This document shows positions 1 to 62,809 of a DNA stretch of 64,000 nt, piece after piece (position 1 is the first letter of the stretch; each line of letters starts with the position of its first letter). The position numbers and the translations under genes are program-made. Source of the stretch: a virus. The stretch is taken from IMG/VR virus record IMGVR_UViG_3300005274_000001, positions 93,226 through 157,225 of that record. One strand, given 5' to 3'. The notes under the pieces were generated by a model that was not told the DNA's origin, did no database searches, and was given only the letters and a program-made list of their open reading frames with translations.

Positions 1-391
1 TGTATTCAACAAGATTTTCACCTTCTTGTCTTTGCATTGAGCACCTAGCGAAAACAGGATTACCTTGTTGATCTTTAATGATTAGCGTCAGTTTAAAATT
101 AGTCTTTATTTGTCCACCAAGAACGCCATAGATACCAGCCTCTAGCATCTTACCTATAGTACAAGTATCAACACCAAGGTCTTCTTTTGTGAGCTGCATT
201 AAAACAAAAACAGGTTCTCCTTCTATGACTACATTACCCGTTTCTAATGTATACCACTTACCTTCTTTATAAAAACCGTCAGCGTATTCAATTATTACTC
301 TTAAAGATTCTGTTGCAAAATCTCTTTCTATGTGAAAGCTTTTGTGTCTTCTCTCTATTTTTGTTTGAACCTCTCCTATCTCTAAAGGCAT
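1..391 (-). CDS. Hypothetical, probably structural protein; runs off the left edge of the window
   Basis: Not in the ORF track. ATG at 391 reads MPLEIGEVQTKIERRHKSF...LTLIIKDQQGNPVF with no stop to base 1. TAAAAT lies 6 nt upstream of the ATG. Confidence 0.75.
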   Translation of the reverse strand, partial: MPLEIGEVQTKIERRHKSFHIERDFATESLRVIIEYADGFYKEGKWYTLETGNVVIEGEPVFVLMQLTKEDLGVDTCTIGKMLEAGIYGVLGGQIKTNFKLTLIIKDQQGNPVFARCSMQRQEGENLVEY

Positions 392-4175: not shown

Positions 4176-5216
4176 TTATTGCACAGAGAAACAAATTTGC
4201 ATTGGCGTTGAGCTTCTTTTAGTGTTAAAGCTAGGACACAAGCTTTGTGTTACTGGACTATATACCTTATTTTGACCAAAACTCTTTAGAAAATTTAGAG
4301 GCTCAATGTAACCATAATACTTTGCGTAAGAGCCTCCATAAAAGATTTCATCTGAGGTAGCTTGAGTATATGGATTATTTTTTCCGAAAAAATTCCAGGG
4401 CTCACTTGGATCCATGAAGGAGGATATGTAATACTTATAGTCTATGCAGTATTGCGTTAAGGATGTTGTGTTTTTTAGTGTGTCGTACAGAATTGCTGCT
4501 ATATAAGCTAAATTTAGTCCTTTATCTTTGTACATGTTTCTTGGATAGTTTTTGGGAAAATTTGAGTAAATATTTTTTAGCGTGGTTTCAAAGTGAAGGT
4601 GAGATGTACTATTGCATTTGTATTCTCCTATTGAAGCTATTCTTTCTCCCGCCTTGACTTTTTTTCCAATGCTTACTTCTGGAACGACATGACCATAAAG
4701 CGCATAAAAAATTTTATTTTGACATCTATGTTCTATTGCTACAAAACCAGAACAATCACAAGATGCGCTACAAAATTGTCTACTAGCGTTGATTACAACG
4801 CCATCGGTTACTGCATATACAGGAAGTCCTAAATCTTGATTTCCTGAACCATAATTTATATCAACGCCTGGATGAAATGAAATGTATTTAAAATTTGACT
4901 TGTCAATCAACTTTGCTCTATCTGATAAAATCTTCCCTCTAGAGAAGTTTAGTTTTTGTGGATTTGTGTTGACTATGAATTCCAAAAGAAGAATTCTATT
5001 TTTTATAGAGGCCAAATCTTGTGGTAAATTTGGATAATTCTGTTTAAAGGAAGAATAGTTCAATTCATAAGATTGTATTAAAGAAGTTATGTCAAACAAA
5101 ATTTTTTGTTCTTGTTGCGTAAAAAATTTTTGATTAGGGTAAGGTTCGCCATAGTTTGTAGTTATGGTTATTGGCGATAAAGAACAATTTATTGGAAAAT
5201 AAACTCTTTGCTCCAT
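4176..5216 (-). CDS. M23-family Zn metallopeptidase (peptidoglycan hydrolase)
   Basis: HxGxD motif (FHPGVDI), PVYAVTDGVV, YGH and HLH (SHLHFE). Confidence 0.9.
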   Translation of the reverse strand: MEQRVYFPINCSLSPITITTNYGEPYPNQKFFTQQEQKILFDITSLIQSYELNYSSFKQNYPNLPQDLASIKNRILLLEFIVNTNPQKLNFSRGKILSDRAKLIDKSNFKYISFHPGVDINYGSGNQDLGLPVYAVTDGVVINASRQFCSASCDCSGFVAIEHRCQNKIFYALYGHVVPEVSIGKKVKAGERIASIGEYKCNSTSHLHFETTLKNIYSNFPKNYPRNMYKDKGLNLAYIAAILYDTLKNTTSLTQYCIDYKYYISSFMDPSEPWNFFGKNNPYTQATSDEIFYGGSYAKYYGYIEPLNFLKSFGQNKVYSPVTQSLCPSFNTKRSSTPMQICFSVQ

Positions 5217-5220
5217 AGCT

Positions 5221-6171
5221 TTACCAAGCAGTCATTACTGGTCTGTAATAAGGAGATAGTAGTTCTCTTAATCTTTCTTTGTATTCGTTATATAGATTTT
5301 CATAAAGAAGGCCATTGTTACCAAAGGAAGCATTGAAGCCTTCTATGCCAAAAGATCTAAGTCCTGCTGTTAAATTTGCAGATATAGCTAATATGAATTG
5401 CATTGCAGTTCTTATTGCTACTGCTTCTAGCAAATCATAGGGCGGATCTGTGTAACCAAATTCGTAATCAATTACTATAACTTGAGGAATTCTAGGTGCA
5501 ATTGGACCATATTGCGAACCCCAAAGTGGGTCTTGAGAAGTTGTTTGCGATAGAATTCTAGCCATTACAGCAGGAAATATGTGTATTTCTCCGGTTCTGT
5601 AGAAGTAGAATTCATTTGGTTTATACAACCTAAAGAATAAATTTTTTCCTTCGTACCCTGGAGGAGCTGTAAACGCTAAGGCTAGAGAGTAAACAGTTAT
5701 TATTGGAGCGTAATAGGTAATGATTAGTGGTGTTCCTTTTCCGTCTTGTCTTTCGGCATCGCCAATTTTATTTGGAGCAACACGAATGTTTGAAACCCAT
5801 TGGTTTAATTGGTCATTTGTTAAGAGATCAAAAGGCAGAGATCCAGGAACATAAAAACTAGGATTATTTCCATAAAGATTTTTTTGCGCCGCCGTTAAAT
5901 CTTCCCACTTGGGAAACTGATAAAAGTTTTCATTTATAGCATCCTTGTATTTGGCCCTGTTTTCGTAAGCTTCTCTAGGTGTTTTTGGAAGATTAGTAAA
6001 TCTAGCTGGTGTTAGAGAAGTTCTCAATCTGTTTTCTATATATTGTGCAGACCTTTCTATCTCTCTTTCTAAATATTGTTGAACTTCAGGTGTAATTTCG
6101 GGCATTAAAACGCCCTCTACCTTGTCTAAAAGTATTTGAAATATGTCTTGTTTTACTTTTTCTGTAAGCAT
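5221..6171 (-). CDS. Head-tail adaptor/neck-like protein
   Basis: N-terminal helices (IERSAQYIENRL) and C-terminal IDYEFGYTDPPYDLLEAV...LLSPYYR, the Y-x-x-G-Y...P pattern of gp6/gp15-type connectors. Confidence 0.6.
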   Translation of the reverse strand: MLTEKVKQDIFQILLDKVEGVLMPEITPEVQQYLEREIERSAQYIENRLRTSLTPARFTNLPKTPREAYENRAKYKDAINENFYQFPKWEDLTAAQKNLYGNNPSFYVPGSLPFDLLTNDQLNQWVSNIRVAPNKIGDAERQDGKGTPLIITYYAPIITVYSLALAFTAPPGYEGKNLFFRLYKPNEFYFYRTGEIHIFPAVMARILSQTTSQDPLWGSQYGPIAPRIPQVIVIDYEFGYTDPPYDLLEAVAIRTAMQFILAISANLTAGLRSFGIEGFNASFGNNGLLYENLYNEYKERLRELLSPYYRPVMTAW

Positions 6172-6175
6172 AATT

Positions 6176-6436
6176 CTATATTAGAGTGTACAGGTGATAG
6201 ATGATAGCTAATAATCCCAAAACCATTAATAGCGCCAAAATGTGCGCAACCCAAGGTTTTGTTTTAGATTTCCTATAAAACCTTTCAGAAAGCGTGATTC
6301 CAGTTAGCCTTATAGAAATGTATTCTCCTACTCCTAAAGCTATGAGAACCAGAAGAGTGAAAATTGCCCACTCTTTTAATCCTGCCAAATAAAATGCCGT
6401 AGCCCAAACCATGAATGTTCCTAGTACTATTAGCAT
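6176..6436 (-). CDS. Small membrane protein with 3 hydrophobic segments; holin candidate
   Basis: 86 aa with three hydrophobic stretches and a basic loop (RFYRKSKTK); two genes upstream of the M23 peptidase. TAAAAT-6 nt-ATG. Confidence 0.55.
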   Translation of the reverse strand: MLIVLGTFMVWATAFYLAGLKEWAIFTLLVLIALGVGEYISIRLTGITLSERFYRKSKTKPWVAHILALLMVLGLLAIIYHLYTLI

Positions 6437-6492
6437 AATTTCATTTTATCTAGCAATCTTTGTTTTTTCACTTTTTGTTTTACAATATAAGT

Positions 6493-6678
6493 GTGCAGAC
6501 ACTTAAAACATGGTATCAAAATAAGATGTCAGTTTATAGAGAAACCAACAAAACAATTAAAGATATACAAAATTTAAGAACCTTTTATTATTTAATGAAA
6601 GCTGAATACGGAGAATATGCCATGAAAGATTGGAACACTTTATTTAGGAAATTTTTAAAGGATCAAGGACTTTTGTGA
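6493..6678 (+). CDS. Small hypothetical protein (61 aa)
   Basis: Track ORF 6460..6678 restarted at GTG6493, 6 nt after TACAAT (6481-6486). Confidence 0.55.
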   Translation: MQTLKTWYQNKMSVYRETNKTIKDIQNLRTFYYLMKAEYGEYAMKDWNTLFRKFLKDQGLL

Positions 6679-6701
6679 TAGAATTAAAAAGGGGAAGATT
6701 T

Positions 6702-7124
6702 ATGAAAAAGGTAAAGGTAAGATTTAGGCCAAGAACAAGCTTAAGGGTTGCTTACAAGGGCATGGTTTATAGATTGGTTACTGAAGGAGAAGAGCAATTT
6801 GTTGAACTGCCAATGAGAAATATGGGAGAAAAAGAAGCTGCTGAACTTTTGGAACACCTAAAGAAAATTGGAATTTTGTCCAGCTACGAAACAAAAGTTG
6901 TTGAAGATACTGTAGCAGTCCAACCACAAAAAGAAAGCCCAGAAGAACCTCAAAAGGAAGATACTCCTACATCTCAGGTTAGCACAGAAGAAAATAGCGC
7001 TAAAGAAGAAGCGGTAAAAGAAACAGTAAAAGAAGATGAACCTGAAAAAGAAACAAAAGATAGTTCTCAAAAGTCTGAAACCTCGCAAAGCACTAAAAAG
7101 AGGAGGAGCAGAAAAACAAATTAG
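6702..7124 (+). CDS. Hypothetical protein with acidic low-complexity region and basic C-terminal tail
   Basis: ATG6702 follows AGGGGAAG; E/K/S/T-rich C-terminal half ending KKRRSRKTN. Confidence 0.7.
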   Translation: MKKVKVRFRPRTSLRVAYKGMVYRLVTEGEEQFVELPMRNMGEKEAAELLEHLKKIGILSSYETKVVEDTVAVQPQKESPEEPQKEDTPTSQVSTEENSAKEEAVKETVKEDEPEKETKDSSQKSETSQSTKKRRSRKTN

Positions 7125-7133
7125 TGGACTATC

Positions 7134-7622
7134 ATGATTCAAATAAGTCTTTCGCAAGCAAACCCATTAACTACAACATTATCTGGTCATATCTTTGATA
7201 CTAACAATGTTAATTATTATGATATCGGCGTAGTGAAGGAAGAGGTTTCTGGACAAACAAAAATTTTTCTTAGTAGAGAAACTTTGCAAAGTGTTACAAC
7301 TCCCAAATTTCTTTTTTTCAAAATTAGCGCAAATAGTTTTTTAACACATTCAGATTTTTGTTCATCTTATTCTTCTGACATTTGTTCTGGATTTACTATT
7401 AACTACCTTTATGGTGGTGAATATATATCACTTATCTTTATAAAGGGGAACATTTTAAATATTGTAAAGTTTCTGTTTGATTTGAATCACCCAGCGTTTA
7501 CAATTAACTCAACATTTAGTGAAAATTATATAAACGCAAAACTAGCGTTTGAAGAAGGAGCGCTTAGATTAAGAACAGAAAATGTTGATACAGGCAGTCC
7601 TTACAAAAAATATTGTTTTTGA
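7134..7622 (+). CDS. Hypothetical protein (baseplate region)
   Basis: 162 aa ORF directly upstream of baseplate J. Confidence 0.7.
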   Translation: MIQISLSQANPLTTTLSGHIFDTNNVNYYDIGVVKEEVSGQTKIFLSRETLQSVTTPKFLFFKISANSFLTHSDFCSSYSSDICSGFTINYLYGGEYISLIFIKGNILNIVKFLFDLNHPAFTINSTFSENYINAKLAFEEGALRLRTENVDTGSPYKKYCF

Positions 7623-7640
7623 AAACTTAAAATAAAAGCG

Positions 7641-9629
7641 ATGAAAACAAAGTTTGAGATATTAAACTTTTTAGAAAATACATTTTTAGCAATACAAAAC
7701 AAAATCAATGCAATAAAACCTGGTAGTGTAATAAGGTCTATATTTTACTCTGTTGCTAGTGCAATTGAAGATGTTTATGCGCTAATAGACGAAGTAAAGC
7801 AAAATTCATACATACACACAGCCACAGGTGAATACTTAGACCAATTGATTTATGGATTTTCTAAACTTGAAAGGATAAGAGGAAGAAGAGCCTTTGGTTA
7901 TGTTGTTCTTAGTCCAATAGGTTTCAATTTTGATTCCATACAAAGTATAGATTTGTTGTCTAACACTATTTTTTCAAAATACGATGTAAAAAATAACCTA
8001 ATTTTTTCTCCCCCACTTTCCGCTAAATTCAGCATTTCAACAGCATATGGGATTTTTAACTATCTTCTATTGCCTCCAATTAAATTATCTCTTCAATATG
8101 AGGACGATTTCTACTATGAGATAAATCCAAACACGGGAAAGCAAAGAATAGCTGAGATTTTTGCTGAAACCATAAAGGCAAACTTTCTTCAAAACCCAAC
8201 AAAGAGGATAAAGTACATAGTTCTACCTATAATTTCGGAGGACTTTGGAAAAGAAAAAAATTTGCTACCCTCATCAATAGATGTTGTTTTACAATTTGGC
8301 ACAGCAAAATTTTCTCTAAGCAACAATTTTGAGTACACGCTTTTGACAGATGAAACTTTTGTTGATTTAGATTCGGTATCTTCTTATGAAGACACCCTTC
8401 TTATTCTAGGAGAATCCTCAGAAATCAAAGGAGGATCTTCAGAAGAAACAGACGAAGAATACAGAAACAGATATTGGAATTTCTTAAATTCTTTATCTAA
8501 GGGAACAATTTCCTCAATTGAAAACGCCCTCTCTCAAATAATACAAGGTGCAAAAGTAAAGGCTATTAGTTCTCCCAACCCCGGAGTAATAGATGTTTAC
8601 ATTTATTCAGACACTCAAACAATAAGCAATTCACTTGTTTTACTCTCTCAAGAAATTGTAGACGAAGTTAAGCCTGCTGGTTCTATAATAAACATAAGAT
8701 TTCCAAAGACTGTTTACATAAACCTTCTTGTTGATAGCAAACAGTCTATCACAAAAAACGATATTGAAAGTATTAGACTAAAATTCAGAGATTCATTCTC
8801 TGAGTTAAATATTGGCGATTCCTTCTCCTATGAGAAATTTTGGGAGTTTTTAAGTGGTCAAAACTCTTCGTTTGCTAATCCAATGTTTGGTTTATCTTTA
8901 AATCGTGAACTTTTTGAGCTGTATAAAGATAGCATCAAAAAGTTTGTCTGTTTAAACTACTACGAAAGCCACACATATTTCACAACACTACCTGACTTTT
9001 GCAATGGAACTTCTGAATTTACTTATAGTGATTATTTAAACATCGTTTCAGAAGGAAAAATAGCTCTATATATCTACGACAAAAACATAAACTACAAATC
9101 GTATATAACTAACAACAGTTATTCTTCTAACCTAAACATACAGGCTCCTAGATACCCTCTAAAAAAAGTTATTTCTAGAGTCCTTAGTGGAGAAGAAATT
9201 CTTCATCCAAGTATAAGAAATGCAATAAAAGCTAGATGTAAAAACATATCTGCAGACATTTGTTTGAAAGAAATATCTAGAAATGGCGACTTAGATGCAT
9301 CTGGAGTGCAAAGTAGAATAGCTATACCCATTTTTGATTTGGACGAAATTTACGCAAACTACTTTAAGATAAAACTCATGACACTACCTGTAAGGTCAAC
9401 AAACGATATAGAGTTGTGCGAAAACAAAATATCTGATTACGGATATTGTTCTAGCAATTCTTACGAATTCAAGATTTTGTATTTCTTACTAAACGATGTG
9501 CAATACATAGAATACAAAGACTTGGACGAAATACAATATTCAGATAGTCTTATTCGTTTACAAACATCTAGCCAACTTAATAAAGACTTTATAGCAAAGT
9601 ATAATGTAGCTGTAAGGAGTGAGCAATGA
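7641..9629 (+). CDS. Baseplate wedge protein, gpJ-like
   Basis: PGSVIRSIF...ATGEYLD...RAFGYV and GGSSEETDEEYRNRY...KGT...PGVIDVYI...VKPAG, the hallmark motifs of Baseplate_J. Confidence 0.88.
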   Translation: MKTKFEILNFLENTFLAIQNKINAIKPGSVIRSIFYSVASAIEDVYALIDEVKQNSYIHTATGEYLDQLIYGFSKLERIRGRRAFGYVVLSPIGFNFDSIQSIDLLSNTIFSKYDVKNNLIFSPPLSAKFSISTAYGIFNYLLLPPIKLSLQYEDDFYYEINPNTGKQRIAEIFAETIKANFLQNPTKRIKYIVLPIISEDFGKEKNLLPSSIDVVLQFGTAKFSLSNNFEYTLLTDETFVDLDSVSSYEDTLLILGESSEIKGGSSEETDEEYRNRYWNFLNSLSKGTISSIENALSQIIQGAKVKAISSPNPGVIDVYIYSDTQTISNSLVLLSQEIVDEVKPAGSIINIRFPKTVYINLLVDSKQSITKNDIESIRLKFRDSFSELNIGDSFSYEKFWEFLSGQNSSFANPMFGLSLNRELFELYKDSIKKFVCLNYYESHTYFTTLPDFCNGTSEFTYSDYLNIVSEGKIALYIYDKNINYKSYITNNSYSSNLNIQAPRYPLKKVISRVLSGEEILHPSIRNAIKARCKNISADICLKEISRNGDLDASGVQSRIAIPIFDLDEIYANYFKIKLMTLPVRSTNDIELCENKISDYGYCSSNSYEFKILYFLLNDVQYIEYKDLDEIQYSDSLIRLQTSSQLNKDFIAKYNVAVRSEQ

Positions 9630-22984: not shown

Positions 22985-23509
22985 ATGAAGGAAAAACACA
23001 AGACAATGTTAAACTTTGAAGAGGGCGTTCAAAAAAACGAATTTTCGTTTGGTGCTTATAAGTTGGTTGCTAGAGTTCCAACTCTTTTCGAAGAATCTAA
23101 AATTTTTCTTAAGAGGTTCGAGATTTTTAAAAAGTTTTTGAACGAAGATGAAGATTTCAAAAACTATTTTAGCGATATAACTGTAAAAGAGCTGAAAATA
23201 AATGACGAAGGTAAACCAGAAATAGTCGATGTTCCTTTTGATCCCAAAAAGCAAGACCACATTGAACATGTGTTCAACAATTATCTAGGAGAAGAGTACA
23301 GAGAACTTATTAACAGATTAGCCTATCTTGATGTCGTTATAGAAAAAATTTATAGAGGAGAAGAAGAGCTTCGTGGAAAGTTTTCCGATTTATTCTTTTT
23401 CCAGCCAACAAGCGGTCTTCATTTAAGAGAGATATTTAACCTTTCTGAAGAAATTATCAACTGGATTAACTCAGTAAATGAGGTTGACCCTTTTTTGTCA
23501 AAAAATTAA
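22985..23509 (+). CDS. Tail assembly chaperone-like protein (G form, 174 aa)
   Basis: RVPTLFEESKI...LAYLDVVI pattern; ends in stacked slippery heptamers; lies in the tail module. Confidence 0.55.
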   Translation: MKEKHKTMLNFEEGVQKNEFSFGAYKLVARVPTLFEESKIFLKRFEIFKKFLNEDEDFKNYFSDITVKELKINDEGKPEIVDVPFDPKKQDHIEHVFNNYLGEEYRELINRLAYLDVVIEKIYRGEEELRGKFSDLFFFQPTSGLHLREIFNLSEEIINWINSVNEVDPFLSKN

Positions 23510-24030
23510 TATCTGAAGATATTCATCTAAATGCTATAATAAATGCTTACTTCTCTTCATTCTCTGTTCCGGCAATTGATTCGTCAATAAAAGCAGACAT
23601 AAAATCTCTAGCAGAAGGTGGAAGTATTAGTCAGCCTTTATTTCTTCCCCTTTTAAAACCTTATGAAAAATATTTTCCTCTTAATACTCTAACAAAAGGA
23701 AAGCTAAATTTGATTCTTGGAATAGAGTTTTATTTCGGAAGGCAAAAAACTTTGGCGTTATACCTTTTGTCAACAAAAAACAAGAAGCTTAAAGAATTAG
23801 TTGAAGCTGCATCGAGATTAAAGATTTTGAAGGACAAAAGTCTTGGGCTTCACGAAGAGATAGCGGAAAAAGGTTTATCAAAACTGGATGAAATATTGAT
23901 GGAAATCGAAAAGTTAGATATAAAAGTAAAAACGCTTTTAGCAGAAGTTTCTTCTGACAAGTCTTTGCAAAATGAGTTAGGGGTTGGAGGAGAAGAATTG
24001 AAAACTATGATTGAAGAATTTATAGCCTGA
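23488..24030 (+). CDS. -1 frameshift extension (GT form) of the tail chaperone
   Basis: The -1 frame is open for 180 codons from 23488 (right after TGA 23485-23487) to 24030 and contains track ORF 23710..24030, which has only a TTG start with no SD or promoter. Confidence 0.65.
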   Translation, partial: PFFVKKLISEDIHLNAIINAYFSSFSVPAIDSSIKADIKSLAEGGSISQPLFLPLLKPYEKYFPLNTLTKGKLNLILGIEFYFGRQKTLALYLLSTKNKKLKELVEAASRLKILKDKSLGLHEEIAEKGLSKLDEILMEIEKLDIKVKTLLAEVSSDKSLQNELGVGGEELKTMIEEFIA

Positions 24031-25087
24031 GATCAAACTGCTCTTCTGTAAAAGAATTTTGGGCAAACTTTCTATTTACAGCGTCTATGTAAAAGGTTCT
24101 AAAACCATCCTTTACTACTGATTCTTCGTATATTTCTATGTGTTCTTTTAATTTTTCTACAAATACACTATCAACTGATATGGTAACTATTTTGTTTTTA
24201 GTTTCATATTTATTGTTCCTAGGTGAATATAGAAACTTTATTCTATCAAGATATTTAGCAATAGAAGCTACATCTGAATCAACATTTAAATATTTTCCTC
24301 TCCCCACTCTTTTGTAACCTAAAAGAAGAATTCCCAAATCAATATTCGAAGTATAAGGAAATTCTTCGCCTACAAGTTTGTAGTTTTTATATTTGGCAAC
24401 ATATATTTTTCTTATAATTTTCTTCAAACTTTCTTGATCTTTGAAGTGTATTCCCTCAATTAAGTGAATCTTTATTTTGAATTTTATGTCAAATATTGGA
24501 CTATCTAAATTGAGCAAATCTAACAGATTGTAATTCTTTATTTTGTTTTTTTCTTTCCTTATGATTTTCTCTATTTTGGATGTAAATGGATACAATCTAA
24601 AAATGTAAAAATCTTCTATGTTACTTAACAATTTTTTTACTTCACCGTATTCTTTTCCTGGTGTTGGACTGAAACCGACACCTATGGAAAACGAAAATTC
24701 TGCACCATTTGAATTTAAGTAGTACTGCAAGTAATTTTCTTTATTGCTTTTAACTTCTTCAAAAAGCCTAAGAAGATTTCTGTAACTAAATATGTCTTGT
24801 GCAAAATTCAAATTCTTGGTAGTTAGAGAAAAGAACAACCTTCTCTTTATTGTTTCAAGAAACACATCAAATATATAGGGATATTGTGTTGGTTCTCCTC
24901 CACCAACAACTACTTCCAACACATCGTTTTCATTAAGAAAATCTAGAACTTTTTTTATGTACTCAAAATCAGCATGTTTTCCAGTAATCTTAGAGTTCTG
25001 GTAGCAAAAAGGGCAACCATAATCACAATAGTTGGTTACTTTTAGGTCAACGCTTATTGCCTGGTTTTTGATGTTTTGTAGGTTCAT
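24020..25087 (-). CDS. Radical SAM enzyme
   Basis: CxxxCxxC (CDYGCPFC) and GGGEP; no C-terminal SPASM cysteines. Confidence 0.92.
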   Translation of the reverse strand: MNLQNIKNQAISVDLKVTNYCDYGCPFCYQNSKITGKHADFEYIKKVLDFLNENDVLEVVVGGGEPTQYPYIFDVFLETIKRRLFFSLTTKNLNFAQDIFSYRNLLRLFEEVKSNKENYLQYYLNSNGAEFSFSIGVGFSPTPGKEYGEVKKLLSNIEDFYIFRLYPFTSKIEKIIRKEKNKIKNYNLLDLLNLDSPIFDIKFKIKIHLIEGIHFKDQESLKKIIRKIYVAKYKNYKLVGEEFPYTSNIDLGILLLGYKRVGRGKYLNVDSDVASIAKYLDRIKFLYSPRNNKYETKNKIVTISVDSVFVEKLKEHIEIYEESVVKDGFRTFYIDAVNRKFAQNSFTEEQFDLRL

Positions 25088-26037
25088 CTTAGATCTCCAC
25101 CTCCCAACTCGTAAATCGCATAAATGTTTTCTTGCGGATCATATAAAACTAATTCATTTCCTTTTCTGGAAGATATTGAGAAATTAACATTCTTCGCTTT
25201 TCCTAAGGCATTAACCTCTCTATGAAAAACATTAGTTTCTAGGTTATTTTGTCTTTCTGTTATGATGTCTAGAACGATGTCTTTAAAAATAGCTTTTCTA
25301 TTTCTTTTGTGTGGCTTAGAATTTCCATAAACTTTAGAAATTGCTACTTCATTTGTTAAACTTTTTCCCAAAAATGAATATTCTTCCTCTTCGTATACTA
25401 GAAGTAGTGTTTTTACTCTTTTCTTTAGTTCTCTGTAATTATCCAAAATCGCTTCTTCGTCAAAATTATATGTTTTTCTATCTATCACAGGATTAAACAG
25501 TATTTTTAAGTAGTTGGCGTATATGTAAAGAGGAAAATTTAGTGTGGAAAACTTTGCAATAAATAGATTTCCTTCTTTCTTCATTTCCTCCAAATAAATA
25601 TTTACAAATTCATTTCCAGGAAGAAGAACATCTCCTATTTTTCTAAGTATTTTGTATATCCTATTTTCCACAGAATCCTTTTTTACCTTTTTAAACTTGT
25701 GATAAAAGTCAGATATTTCAATAAATGATTCAACCGCTAAAACAAGCAGAAGAAAGTTCCTTATCTTTTCATTTTCATTGACCAAATAAGCTACGAAATC
25801 TTCTTCAAGCCTATTTAAATAATTAAATGAAGCACCTTTTAATTCTTTCTTAAAGATTTCGTAGTTTGAAAGCTTTTTGATGAAACTACTAGATTTCTCA
25901 TCTTCCTTTATGAACAAAAGCAAATCACCATAAAACACATCATCGAAGGAAGAATCTTTATCTGAAGGTATAACTAGCATAGAAGCAGAAGAAGAATTTG
26001 TCATGCTGGTAAGTCTTATTTCTTTTAGCCTTCTCAT
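25084..26037 (-). CDS. Radical-SAM-associated protein with N-terminal TNSSS motif
   Basis: MRRLKEIRLTSMTNSSSASML; ATG26037 follows GGAGGTG; ATGA overlap with the radical SAM gene. Confidence 0.7.
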   Translation of the reverse strand: MRRLKEIRLTSMTNSSSASMLVIPSDKDSSFDDVFYGDLLLFIKEDEKSSSFIKKLSNYEIFKKELKGASFNYLNRLEEDFVAYLVNENEKIRNFLLLVLAVESFIEISDFYHKFKKVKKDSVENRIYKILRKIGDVLLPGNEFVNIYLEEMKKEGNLFIAKFSTLNFPLYIYANYLKILFNPVIDRKTYNFDEEAILDNYRELKKRVKTLLLVYEEEEYSFLGKSLTNEVAISKVYGNSKPHKRNRKAIFKDIVLDIITERQNNLETNVFHREVNALGKAKNVNFSISSRKGNELVLYDPQENIYAIYELGGGDLR

Positions 26038-26052
26038 GCTCTTCTTCACCTC

Positions 26053-26691
26053 CTAAAAAAACTCCACCTTTTCAGCATCTAAAGTTATCGCTTTGTGAGC
26101 CTCCAAAAATTCTACTACTTGGTATATATCTTCAAAGTGTTTAATCAGTTTAACCTCGTTATGAGGTATTGGAATGAATATTCCTTTAACATTTAAACTT
26201 TTAATGCTAAATTCGCCAAAAGTGTAGAGATTTATATACAAAAACACCTCATCTGTCAACGAAAAGCTAGGTAAATTTAAAAATACCAAAGAGTGAAGAG
26301 TAATTATCTCAACATCTTTACTTCCATCTAATTTTTCTGGTAAGTACTTAATTGCTATAAAATTTTTTGCTATCAACGAAAACAAATCATAATCTAATAC
26401 ATCTACTGCCAAAACAAAATCTGCAGATTGTGTATTGTTAAACTTTTCTTTTACAAAACTGTTTGAAAATTTTACCGCTGAAATCCAGCTTTCGTAAAAT
26501 TCTAAAAACGGATTTTTCTTTTCGCTAATTGTAGAAACAATGTAGCTTGAAGTTATATTTAATCTAAACTTATAAAACCCCAAATTTGTGTTTTTAACTT
26601 TAACATCTTTTTCATTAATTGCATCTATTGCTGCTTCTAAAAACTTTTTTAATTTTTCTCTATCGTTTTTCAGAACGCCTGGTACTTTCAC
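26053..26691 (-). CDS. Hypothetical protein, first gene of the radical SAM operon
   Basis: 212 aa; GTG start 6 nt after a -10 box. Confidence 0.75.
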   Translation of the reverse strand: MKVPGVLKNDREKLKKFLEAAIDAINEKDVKVKNTNLGFYKFRLNITSSYIVSTISEKKNPFLEFYESWISAVKFSNSFVKEKFNNTQSADFVLAVDVLDYDLFSLIAKNFIAIKYLPEKLDGSKDVEIITLHSLVFLNLPSFSLTDEVFLYINLYTFGEFSIKSLNVKGIFIPIPHNEVKLIKHFEDIYQVVEFLEAHKAITLDAEKVEFF

Positions 26692-26697
26692 ACCACA

Positions 26698-26726
26698 ACC
26701 TTACCACACCGTGTCTTTGGTGTCAA
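26698..26726 (-). promoter_or_regulatory. Sigma-A-type (early) leaderless promoter
   Basis: TTGACA-17 nt-TAAGGT (preceded by TGTGG)-6 nt-GTG26691. Confidence 0.8.
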
Positions 26727-26761
26727 GCCATTGCGCTGATGGAAGATGCTAAAATAAAGCT

Positions 26762-27307
26762 ATGACAAACACTTTAAATTTGCTAGCAAAGGAAGTTGCC
26801 AATAGATTGGGATTTCTTTACTTGAACACAAAAGATTTACATCACAAACTTGAACCTGTTAAATTTTTTGTTTCAAGATATTTAGAAGACAGAGTAATAG
26901 ACGAAGAAGACATAGAGTTTCTAACTTCTAGCTACGAAGACTTTCCTTCCTCAAACCTTTTGAGAACTGAAAGCACTTTTTTAATTCAAAGCTTTTCTGA
27001 TTTGGCTGGTTTTGCAGAAGAACTAGAATTGTCGTTATCAAATATTGCTTCACCTTCATCTCTTATAAGGATAGATAACTATTCAAAAATAATAACTGTT
27101 GATGACATTGAAATAATGTTCTATGCTATAGAGGATTATGAACATGTTCTTTTGCCTTATTTTTTGTTTTTTCTTCTTGTAAGTATCAATAATGTTGAAG
27201 ACGTTGTAGATAGTAAGTTAGAACCATCTTCTATAAATAAAGAAGACTTTAGAAAGTTCTCAAAAGAAACAAAACAAAAAACCAATCTTCTTGCAAAATT
27301 ATTGTGA
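26762..27307 (+). CDS. Hypothetical protein
   Basis: 181 aa; TAAAAT (26750-26755)-6 nt-ATG. Confidence 0.75.
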   Translation: MTNTLNLLAKEVANRLGFLYLNTKDLHHKLEPVKFFVSRYLEDRVIDEEDIEFLTSSYEDFPSSNLLRTESTFLIQSFSDLAGFAEELELSLSNIASPSSLIRIDNYSKIITVDDIEIMFYAIEDYEHVLLPYFLFFLLVSINNVEDVVDSKLEPSSINKEDFRKFSKETKQKTNLLAKLL

Positions 27308-43663: not shown

Positions 43664-43692
43664 AGCATAGCACCAACGGGCTTATATGTCAA
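43664..43692 (-). promoter_or_regulatory. Sigma-A-type promoter for dut, partly embedded in the thyX 3' end
   Basis: TTGACA-17 nt-TATGCT. Confidence 0.75.
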
Positions 43693-60545: not shown

Positions 60546-61079
60546 ATGAAAAAGGCCATGATAGAATACGCAAAAAAGGAAGTAAATGATGAGTTTTACA
60601 CTCCCAGATTTGCAGTTGAACCTCTCTTGAAATACATACCCAAAGATAAAATACTATGGTGTCCCTTTGACACAGAAGATTCTAATTATGTTAAAGTTTT
60701 CAAGGAAAACGGCTACAAAGTCGTCTATTCACATATAAGTACAGGACAAGATTTCTTTTACTATGAACCAGATGAATACGATATTATCGCTTCTAATCCA
60801 CCATTTAGCATAAAAACAGAAGTTTTAAAAAGAGCCTATAGTCTTGGAAAACCCTTTGCGTTTTTGCTTCCAATAACTACCTTAGAAGGAAAACAAAGGG
60901 GAGAATTATTTAGAAAATATGGCCTTCAACTTATTATTTTTGATAAGCGAATAGAGTTTATATCTAATGAAAAATCTGGAGTTTGGTTTAACACTAGCTA
61001 TTTCTGTTATAAATTGCTACCAAAAGATTTGATTTTTGAAGAGTTGAAAGTTCACTACCAGAAAGATTCCATATTGTGA
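60546..61079 (+). CDS. Small DNA amino-methyltransferase (N6-adenine type)
   Basis: DEFYTP, WCPFD, GQDFF and catalytic SNPPFS. Confidence 0.8.
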   Translation: MKKAMIEYAKKEVNDEFYTPRFAVEPLLKYIPKDKILWCPFDTEDSNYVKVFKENGYKVVYSHISTGQDFFYYEPDEYDIIASNPPFSIKTEVLKRAYSLGKPFAFLLPITTLEGKQRGELFRKYGLQLIIFDKRIEFISNEKSGVWFNTSYFCYKLLPKDLIFEELKVHYQKDSIL

Positions 61080-62809
61080 TAATACAGATAATAGAAAAAC
61101 AGAAACCAGGTTGTTGCTGTTATGCTAGGAAATTCTCCAATTTCATATGTATCGTCATAACCAACCGAATAAGGAAGTAGTTCTTTTAAGATGAAGTTTT
61201 GTATTTTGTCTTTATCTTCTCTTAATTCAAGTTCGTTTTTGAAAATTAAATACTTTGCGTAAAGCGCCTGAAAATATCCTTCAAACCAAAGAAGATTTTT
61301 TGCGCCTGGATAACCAAATTCATTTGAATAGGGTTTGTATAGATTTGGTATGAAAGAAGTATTTGTTGGCCTTATTTTGAAAAATTGGTCCAAGTATTGA
61401 TAGTTTTTAAACACGCTGTTTATGTCAAAGCCAATTTTATAAAGGAAAATCGTACCCCAAGTATAAATATCTAACGCACCTGCTGTATCTTGGTATCCTT
61501 GCGTTAATTTTTCGCCGTCATAAATATTGTTTATGATAGCATTTTTTATTTGTTCTGCTTTTGTGTTGTAAATAGATTCGTTTGTTATATCATATACACT
61601 TTTTAATGCAAAGTAGCTATCTATGTTGTGTTCTGTGCTGTACCACGGAACTATATAAGAGGCATCGAAGTTCCATTGAGCGTCATAAATTCCGTAACCT
61701 CCTCTTACTAAACCGTTAGATTGTATTTCTCCTACTAAATAATCTGCTACGGATTTTATAAAGTTTTTATTTTCTACTGTTTGAAGTTCGGGGATATATT
61801 TGTATGCTTTCGCAAGCGCTTCTAAAAGCCAAGCTACCCCACCGTTTCTTATATATTCATCAGAAAAAAAGCCATAAGAAGGGTAGCTGAAGTTGAAAGA
61901 ATTTTTTGAATTTATTAAATTTTTTGAAGCGTTGAACATGTTAATAACGAGATTTTTTATATTCTCACTTGCACTAATCCTAAATTCTGATAACAAAGAT
62001 AACATTGTGAGCGCTAAATCATATATATATGTTCTCAAAAACGGAAAATCTCTATAACTTACTGGAAGGTAAGTTTTCCAATATGTAAAATCTTCTATAT
62101 CATCTATTTTTACCTTTACTGCCAAAACTTCTTTTTGGTCTGTTTTTTCTATATAATTCACATGAAGAAAATTATTCTCCACTAAAGAAAAGGATGGGTA
62201 GATTGTTTCTACGAGATGAGGTATATCAGTTATTTTATAAACTTCAACTCTATAATCTGTTCCAAACGGATAATAGAGCGTGTAGTCAATCGGTAAGTTA
62301 ATAATCATCCTAGATCCATTGTTCAGTAAAAACTTAACTATAACCGAATTTTCTGAAGGATTTCCATAAATCGGCCCCTCAAATCTCCATGTATTGTAGT
62401 CGCTTATTCCTTCGCTTTTAAGTCTTTCAAATTGAAGATATTCTATACCTGTTTTTACAAAAACTTGTATTTTGTTTAGTGAGTTATATAGAGCGTTGCT
62501 TATCCAAATTTTTATCTGGTTTCCTAAAAACTGATAATCAAGAATTAAATTTTTTATCTGTGTAAATTTTTTGAAGTTCTTGCTTATGGAAATTTTGTAT
62601 TCCCAGGTATTATTTAGACTATTTATCTCTATGTCAAATGTTGCATTGGGTTTTGTGAATAGATAGGCATTTGTGTTTTCTGTGAGTTCTATCAAGCGAT
62701 TTAAGAAATATTCTTTTAGCTGTTGTATAGAAAAAGTCCTTCTTTTTAGGACAACATCAGCGTCTAAAGAAGAGCTGTTTATTTCTTTTATTATTTTGTG
62801 TAGCTTCAT
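61055..62809 (-). CDS. Protein with C-terminal six-hairpin (alpha/alpha)6 glycosidase-like domain
   Basis: YIYDLAL, STEHNIDSYFAL, ALDIYTWG, WFEG, SITATTW helical-barrel motifs. Confidence 0.55.
   Translation of the reverse strand: MKLHKIIKEINSSSLDADVVLKRRTFSIQQLKEYFLNRLIELTENTNAYLFTKPNATFDIEINSLNNTWEYKISISKNFKKFTQIKNLILDYQFLGNQIKIWISNALYNSLNKIQVFVKTGIEYLQFERLKSEGISDYNTWRFEGPIYGNPSENSVIVKFLLNNGSRMIINLPIDYTLYYPFGTDYRVEVYKITDIPHLVETIYPSFSLVENNFLHVNYIEKTDQKEVLAVKVKIDDIEDFTYWKTYLPVSYRDFPFLRTYIYDLALTMLSLLSEFRISASENIKNLVINMFNASKNLINSKNSFNFSYPSYGFFSDEYIRNGGVAWLLEALAKAYKYIPELQTVENKNFIKSVADYLVGEIQSNGLVRGGYGIYDAQWNFDASYIVPWYSTEHNIDSYFALKSVYDITNESIYNTKAEQIKNAIINNIYDGEKLTQGYQDTAGALDIYTWGTIFLYKIGFDINSVFKNYQYLDQFFKIRPTNTSFIPNLYKPYSNEFGYPGAKNLLWFEGYFQALYAKYLIFKNELELREDKDKIQNFILKELLPYSVGYDDTYEIGEFPSITATTWFLFFYYLYYHNMESFW

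Follow-up and report, generated by a model that had tools for sequence, protein, structure and literature searches.

The 64,000 nucleotide stretch analysed here (the window; positions 93,226 to 157,225 of IMG/VR record IMGVR_UViG_3300005274_000001, a complete virus record of 157,225 bp with terminal repeats) contains an operon of three minus-strand open reading frames (ORFs) of 212, 317 and 355 aa, flanked on both sides by plus-strand genes. These are ORF1, ORF2 and a gene for a radical S-adenosylmethionine (SAM) enzyme, and the region is 92.9% identical in nucleotide sequence over 3.9 kb to the Thermus phages phiYS40 and TMA. The phiYS40 counterparts are YSP_163, YSP_162 and YSP_161 respectively, the first two annotated as hypothetical and the third as a 'radical SAM superfamily enzyme / Fe-S oxidoreductase'. 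Sequence comparisons suggest that ORF2 and the radical SAM enzyme are partners dedicated to each other, linked through a short segment at the extreme N-terminus of ORF2, which we refer to as the tag and which carries the residues N-S-S-S.

In residues 1 to about 24 of ORF2, a basic strand leads through a T-N-S-S-S loop into a hydrophobic strand. Close relatives of ORF2 are restricted to phiYS40-like phages, in which they form 11 clusters with identities of 69% or more, and within this family the first 50 residues are almost invariant. A full-library profile search with the close family returns the family itself and a single further protein, P0055, and homology of the ORF2 body therefore does not extend to other tagged proteins; ORF2 has no match in Pfam, NCBIfam, PADLOC or the ESM Atlas. 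The preliminary description of this DNA had singled out the TNSSS N-terminus, and within the ORF2 family no other part is as well conserved; it is retained in three lineages that share only 24-26% identity, with nine of the 24 invariant columns of the alignment falling within residues 1-17. Comparison by hhalign of the ORF2 family with the N-terminal domains of fused homologues of the enzyme aligns residues 1-29 (E 7.5e-5, probability 62%), and beyond residue 29 the alignment of the extended ORF2 profile with that of the canonical N-terminal domain gives no signal. A short-model hmmsearch for the tag did not report even ORF2, and a position matrix built from 68 independent tags was used instead; by this measure the ORF2 N-terminus scores highest among the 71,956 windows of the 157-kb genome. 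A second N-terminal NSSS within the window, at residues 11-14 of a 584-aa tail-fibre-like ORF (61055-62809, minus strand; phrog_13714, E 7e-16), was rejected as a chance occurrence, its flanks scoring +1.1 standard deviations.

ORF2 has the position of the tag, the N-S-S-S, the Arg at -6, both flanking strands and a gene that overlaps the enzyme gene. It departs from other tags in having Thr for Gly10, Ser for His19 and Met for Ser20, and the two distant relatives at loci L004 and L005 have Thr-Gln at positions 19-20. The tag of the phiYS40 lineage can be written R-h-T-x-x-T-N-S-S-S-[AT]-[SQ], lacking both the His and the Gly, and is carried on one 317-aa body; with this pattern in common, ORF2, L004 and L005 constitute a histidine-less sub-lineage of tags. 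Since ORF2 does not have the DH and GNDN motifs of the canonical domain it is not a member of that domain family, and belongs to a class that shares the tag only.

The association of tag and enzyme is widespread among viruses. The enzyme clade is present in 215 IMG/VR contigs, 80 of which were fetched and scored for the N-terminal consensus R-x-G-x-x-x-NSSS-x-H-S. In 45 of these loci the tag is fused to the enzyme, and in 32 it is carried by an ORF of its own no more than 3 kb away, mostly directly upstream and on the same strand; three loci have no tag, two of them cut by the contig end. A reversed-sequence control gave seven loose matches, compared with 107. The preliminary description had stated that TNSSS proteins recur beside or fused to radical SAM domains in large phages, and had proposed that the co-occurrence be counted; the statement holds, since 77 of the 80 viral loci have the tag either on the enzyme itself or next to it. 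The fused proteins, of 470-495 aa, carry VRLGFANNSSSSHS-type N-termini on the same enzyme. The linkage also holds in every cultured-phage lineage that has the clade, including RM378, Ma-LMM01, Lak-C1, Vibrio phage D479 and Salmonella phage Arash. RM378 p106 and Ma-LMM01 gp130 are stand-alone tagged copies located two genes from radical SAM genes, the tagged ORF of Vibrio phage D479 is 1.4 kb upstream of the enzyme gene, and Salmonella phage Arash gp146c (L013:4437-5867), annotated as a 'methyltransferase', is a fusion of the N-terminal domain with the radical SAM enzyme. The label 'Fe-S oxidoreductase', given to the RM378, Ma-LMM01 and phiYS40 genes, is no more informative.

The distant loci L004 and L005 retain the order of the operon, with a small ORF followed by a tagged protein of about 300 aa and an overlapping radical SAM gene, and the N-termini of their partner proteins are VRITFSTNSSSTQ and FRFTNITNSSSTQ. 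In L005 (5082-6014) the public gene call reads the TGA stop codon of the partner as Trp, such that P0055 ends ..YEVWYAKP; under translation table 11 the protein stops at that TGA, one base before the start codon of the radical SAM gene (6001). The L004 relative (4640-8047, in a 152.8 kb contig of GCA_017880035.1) lies beside an N6/N4 DNA methylase and a SNF2-type helicase. A search of 185,579 prokaryote species genomes yielded only 15 loci, all of which except that of Loktanella sp. DJP18 are contigs of metagenome-assembled genomes. The tag-enzyme system is thus essentially viral, and the phages that carry it infect hosts as varied as Thermus, Rhodothermus, cyanobacteria, enterobacteria and, in the case of gut megaphages, Prevotella.

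The N-terminal part of the fused proteins is a conserved domain of about 200 aa, found in 409 protein clusters at E <= 1e-3, for which there is no Pfam or NCBIfam model. In this canonical domain the tag is followed by the motifs FGW.FF, K.NYL, (V/I)DHQS and GGNDN, and the invariant residues are N14, S15, S17, H19, G41, W42, F45, Y56, D96, S99, G133, G134 and D136. An AlphaFold model of the domain is of good quality (predicted local distance difference test score, pLDDT, 84.7; predicted template modelling score, pTM, 0.82), with the invariant loop 10-17 alone falling below a pLDDT of 50, as might fit a loop that takes its shape upon binding of a partner. Searches with this model gave no Foldseek match in the PDB at E <= 1e-3, a best Z of 4.0 with VIA-align wide and family members only in BFVD, and PDB profile searches with two alignments (A3 and A4) returned no match.

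The tag is not confined to this domain. In Prevotella phage Lak-C1 (L015:6001-9256) the enzyme gene is followed directly by five tandem tagged ORFs, all of which start MK(I/V)QIR.GVFETNSSS.H and several of which have strongly acidic bodies; one of the five has the later canonical motifs, and the remaining four have only residues 1-26 in common. A crude test for the motifs finds no canonical domain at 23 of 65 non-redundant loci. The tag is a portable N-terminal module, carried both on the canonical domain and on unrelated bodies; throughout the large phages it goes with this single enzyme clade, and where it is not fused the enzyme has between one and five separate tagged proteins beside it. 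A further arrangement is seen at L011 (5001-7840) and L012 (5001-7884), in which a gene for the fused protein is split into pieces. The first piece encodes the N-terminal domain, the first 16 or so residues of the enzyme and the N-terminal half of an intein, and the last encodes the intein C-terminal half and the remainder of the enzyme; by BLAST comparison the break falls immediately behind the CPFC of the CxxxCxxC motif. The position of this break, with intein halves on pieces of a fused gene, shows that the ancestral gene was itself fused, and the pieces are presumably re-joined by protein splicing. A 316-aa free-standing ORF between the intein halves may be a homing endonuclease.

The enzyme matches the Pfam Radical_SAM model (PF04055) with 49.1 bits, relative to a gathering cut-off of 29.5, over residues 16-95 only. 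It has a GGGEP SAM-binding motif and the cluster motif C21-x3-C25-x2-C28, whose three cysteines are the only ones in the protein; it therefore has no SPASM or twitch cluster, in agreement with the preliminary description, whose LLGYKRVGRG, ISVDS and FYIDAV motifs are likewise present in the translation. The enzyme belongs to a phage clade characterized by GKHAD, GYKxxGRG, D(S/T) and YIDAV..SS motifs (phrog_16999, E 1.6e-122), and is 27% identical by BLAST to a fused member over 340 aa (E 7e-22), the phiYS40-lineage enzyme carrying an insertion of about 70 aa. Invariant residues of the clade outside the cluster include H38 (of GKHAD), K259 (of GYK), D306 and S345, and A39, D40, R263 and G264 are kept in at least 90% of the sequences; the enzyme of the window retains H38, D40, K259, R263 and D306.

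Searches of NCBIfam, PADLOC and PDB sequences with the enzyme yielded weak matches only (31 bits or fewer); those in NCBIfam cover only residues 5-105 or thereabouts, and the curated cut-offs are 126-650 bits. A profile of 30 clade members has its best PDB match, at 34.7 bits, to an archaeal tetraether-lipid (glycerol dialkyl glycerol tetraether/macrocyclic archaeol) synthase, 7TOL, followed by SuiB, viperins, SkfB, PqqE and QueE. Among the specific identities rejected are MoaA (20.6 bits compared with a cut-off of 231), viperin (prokaryotic viperin 25.6 compared with 180; PADLOC pVip 30 bits, residues 13-95 only), QueE (5TGS, 19 bits with the clade profile) and NrdG or PFL activase (TIGR02495, 27.4 bits compared with 131). 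The complete 157-kb genome has no match to NrdD (PF13597), for which control genomes matched, so there is no glycyl-radical partner for an NrdG-type activase; nor does the genome contain a second radical SAM gene. The preliminary description had named NrdG, QueE and MoaA as characterized families into which the enzyme might fall, and the scores are far below the curated cut-offs. By these comparisons the enzyme belongs to no characterized radical SAM family, HxsC and the SPASM maturases included.

The features of the operon are listed in Table 1. The start of ORF2 called mechanically (GTG, 26049) falls within its Shine-Dalgarno sequence GGAGGTGA, and the homologues all start at MR(R/K)LK, corresponding to the Met at ATG 26037; this common start agrees with the preliminary reading of a 317-aa protein beginning MRRLKEIRLTSMTNSSSAS. 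The ATGA coupling of ORF2 with the radical SAM gene, also described previously, can be read directly in ctaagATGAacc, and a separate GGAGGTGGAG precedes the start of the radical SAM gene. At its 3' end this gene overlaps by 11 nt a convergent plus-strand ORF (region 22985-24030, ending at 24030), and a scan found no terminator-like hairpin at the 3' end of the operon.

Table 1. Features of the three-gene operon, in window coordinates
Feature	Position	Strand	Basis or assignment
-35 hexamer TTGACA	26721..26726	-	identical in phiYS40
-10 hexamer TAAGGT after TGg (extended -10), 6 nt before ORF1 GTG	26698..26703	-	genome site family, kept in phiYS40
ORF1, 212 aa, GTG start	26053..26691	-	phrog_31341, function unknown
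Shine-Dalgarno GGAGGTGA of ORF2, overlapping ORF1 stop codon	26046..26053	-	read from sequence
ORF2, 317 aa from ATG, begins MRRLKEIRLTSMTNSSSAS; N-terminal NSSS tag on non-canonical body	25084..26037	-	phrog_28854, function unknown
ORF2 tag, residues 1-24 MRRLKEIRLTSMTNSSSASMLVIP; NSSS codons 25987-25998	25966..26037	-	alignment, hhalign, position matrix
Radical SAM enzyme gene, 355 aa; start overlaps ORF2 stop (ATGA)	24020..25087	-	PF04055, phrog_16999
Codons for C21-x3-C25-x2-C28	25004..25027	-	columns invariant in enzyme-clade alignment

ORF1 is specific to the phiYS40 group and evolves rapidly, being 39% identical to its counterpart in the relative L112, where ORF2 keeps 70%. It has no match in Pfam, NCBIfam or PADLOC and only sub-threshold matches in the ESM Atlas, and BLAST found no counterpart in the other loci compared; nor did an all-against-all BLAST of ten loci reveal a third conserved gene beside tag and enzyme. 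The flanking plus-strand genes, whose order is shared with L005 and L112, have no function assigned in PHROGs; one has a weak CarboxypepD_reg-like domain in Pfam, and a tail-fibre-like protein is encoded 35 kb from the operon. A location within a late structural or tail module is plausible.

The operon promoter consists of TTGACA, a 17-nt spacer, TGg-TAAGGT, 6 nt and the GTG of ORF1, and with the start codon only 6 nt past the -10 hexamer the layout is therefore leaderless. The three genes do lie behind this promoter, all on the minus strand, as described previously; its designation as consensus is appropriate for the -35 hexamer and not for the -10, in which TAAGGT matches TATAAT at three of six positions, and it is because of this departure that a generic promoter scan missed the site. 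The phiYS40 promoter differs only in a single spacer base and in a 5-bp indel that lies upstream of the -35. The whole genome contains 51 TTGAC[AT]-16..18-TAnnnT sites, mostly with a 17-nt spacer and TGn, a pattern to which the operon promoter conforms, and in about ten of these 6-7 nt separate the site from a start codon in leaderless fashion. Another subset precedes GGAGGTGA, and promoter-like sites within the window include those at 43692, 45092, 48803, 55357 and 58987 (minus strand). L112, the 70%-identity relative, retains TTGACA with a 17-nt spacer, and the first ORF of L004 is preceded by TTGACA-17-TATGCT-6-GTG, again a leaderless start. The divergent plus-strand neighbour of the operon (ATG at 26762) has TGc-TAAAAT (26750-26755) followed by 6 nt, with no -35, and the 70-bp intergenic region thus contains two back-to-back leaderless promoters of different classes. 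In phiYS40 the -35/-10 class is reportedly early, and the leaderless class with a -10 only is said to be middle or late; from its promoter class we infer that the operon is transcribed early.

What might the enzyme do to its partner? We propose, with about even confidence, that it binds the tag and modifies the NSSS loop. The host sigma-A polymerase would transcribe the operon early from the -35/-10 promoter as a leaderless mRNA, and the enzyme would be translated in step with its ORF2 client through the ATGA overlap. The enzyme would then dock the tag so as to place the NSSS loop at the [4Fe-4S]/SAM site, where a 5'-deoxyadenosyl radical would abstract hydrogen from a loop residue, most simply from the C-beta or C-alpha of a serine, and the post-translational change thus installed would be needed for ORF2 to do its own job. 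Oxidation or epimerization of serine in this way would be chemically possible by analogy, DesII providing a precedent for alcohol oxidation without an auxiliary cluster.

Several considerations weigh against this proposal. The enzyme has neither the auxiliary cluster nor the spare Cys used by the known maturases that oxidize or epimerize serine. The polar segments D96-S99 (DHQS) and G133-N137 of the canonical domain resemble an active or binding site, so that the fused domain could be a working subunit and not a client, and a fused client would in any case imply a single turnover per enzyme molecule. The ORF2 tag is without the otherwise invariant His19 and the near-invariant Gly10, and the AlphaFold model of ORF2 (from 13 sequences; pLDDT 52) is too poor for a fold search.

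The main rival, which is possible though rather less probable than modification of the loop, is that the tag is a docking strand and that ORF2 or the canonical domain is a specificity or regulatory subunit that presents a third-party substrate, such as a nucleotide, a nucleic acid or a small metabolite. Over half of the loci sampled are fusions, as is typical of multi-domain enzymes; besides the tag, the canonical domain has invariant D-H-Q-S and G-G-N-D-N motifs; and the neighbours in other phages include genes for helicase, primase, DNA polymerase, NAPRTase, Nudix and N6/N4 methylase proteins. Docking, however, should not need the invariance of four small polar loop residues, and it does not account well for several unrelated tagged proteins sharing one enzyme, or for the retention of N-S-S-S by ORF2 and many other partners that have no DH and GNDN motifs. 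It is these last two observations that favour modification: one enzyme has several unrelated clients, and N-S-S-S persists where all else has changed.

Other explanations fare considerably worse. Self-processing at TNSSS, for example a PanD-like serinolysis to a pyruvoyl group with the enzyme having a separate task, would suit serine runs near an N-terminus, as PanD-type cleavage leaves a short N-terminal chain; it is nonetheless very improbable, leaving unexplained why the tag is almost always fused or adjacent to a single radical SAM clade, and searches of Pfam, NCBIfam and the PDB gave no similarity to pyruvoyl enzymes. Still harder to sustain is the view that the enzyme is an ordinary member of the NrdG/PFL activase, QueE, MoaA, viperin, HxsC or SPASM families with ORF2 an unrelated neighbour, for which the weak N-terminal matches noted above are offset by their shortfall from the cut-offs, their restriction to the first hundred or so residues, the 34.7-bit ceiling of the clade profile on any solved structure, the three-cysteine complement and a genome with no NrdD and no other radical SAM gene. 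It is equally hard to credit that ORF2 resembles a tag by chance in an AT-rich, serine-rich proteome: the missing His19 and Gly10, the modest hhalign probability and the fortuitous NSSS of the 584-aa ORF might be cited for it, but the ORF2 N-terminus is the top-scoring window of the genome, is invariant across its family and is bridged by intermediate sequences in L004 and L005, and ORF2 sits directly upstream on the same strand as do the tagged ORFs in most of the 32 separate-tag loci.

Comparison with known systems places the modification proposal in context. An enzyme beside or fused to a polypeptide with a conserved recognition or modification segment recalls the anSME/sulfatase pair and the SkfB, SuiB and PqqE maturases, and the best weak sequence matches among maturases are SuiB 5V1Q, SkfB 6EFN and PqqE 6C8V; the phage enzyme differs from SPASM/twitch maturases in having no auxiliary cluster, and scores 29 bits or fewer with NCBIfam models whose cut-offs are 300-650. 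In contrast to maturases of ribosomally synthesized and post-translationally modified peptides, no RRE domain was detected in the phage system, and the phage clients, rather than being short leader-core peptides, are folded proteins (70-320 aa) tagged at the very N-terminus. PFL-AE and NrdG, too, are small radical SAM enzymes that lack auxiliary clusters, their target being a finger loop in a partner protein, and the R-x-G-F of the canonical tag recalls the RVxG(Y/F) of glycyl-radical systems; the Gly of the tag, however, is Thr in ORF2 and variable in FETNSSS-type tags, and no glycyl-radical enzyme is encoded in the genome. The closest analogue in the literature is the host HXS anti-phage system, in which the radical SAM enzymes HxsB and HxsC mature the HxsA effector at a Ser/His-rich target motif (PMC13128918). 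Both would involve a radical-SAM-matured protein effector in phage-host conflict, and HxsC is the top NCBIfam match, although at 30.7 bits compared with a cut-off of 267.9 and over the N-terminal 73 residues only; the present system differs in being phage-encoded, in having one enzyme and not two, and in lacking HxS repeats in ORF2 and an HxsD. Full-text literature searches found no paper describing an NSSS-tag/radical SAM system.

In summary, few whole proteins are known to be matured by radical SAM enzymes (sulfatases, glycyl-radical enzymes and HxsA), and here the enzyme is paired with a partner that has no Pfam family and no relative of solved fold. Recognizing the system would correct the database labels 'Fe-S oxidoreductase' and 'methyltransferase'. 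The hosts of phages phiYS40 and TMA, Thermus thermophilus HB8 and HB27, are laboratory strains for which genetic tools exist, and the phage proteins should be thermostable, so that both the chemistry and the biological role are directly testable. More tentatively, the system may represent a new kind of phage-specific modification, in which a tag of about 24 residues that can be placed on any body would have a residue of its N-S-S-S converted to a functional group by a cluster-minimal enzyme, switching on early proteins of host takeover or counter-defence; the phiYS40 group would then offer the first model of it that is both cultivable and thermostable.

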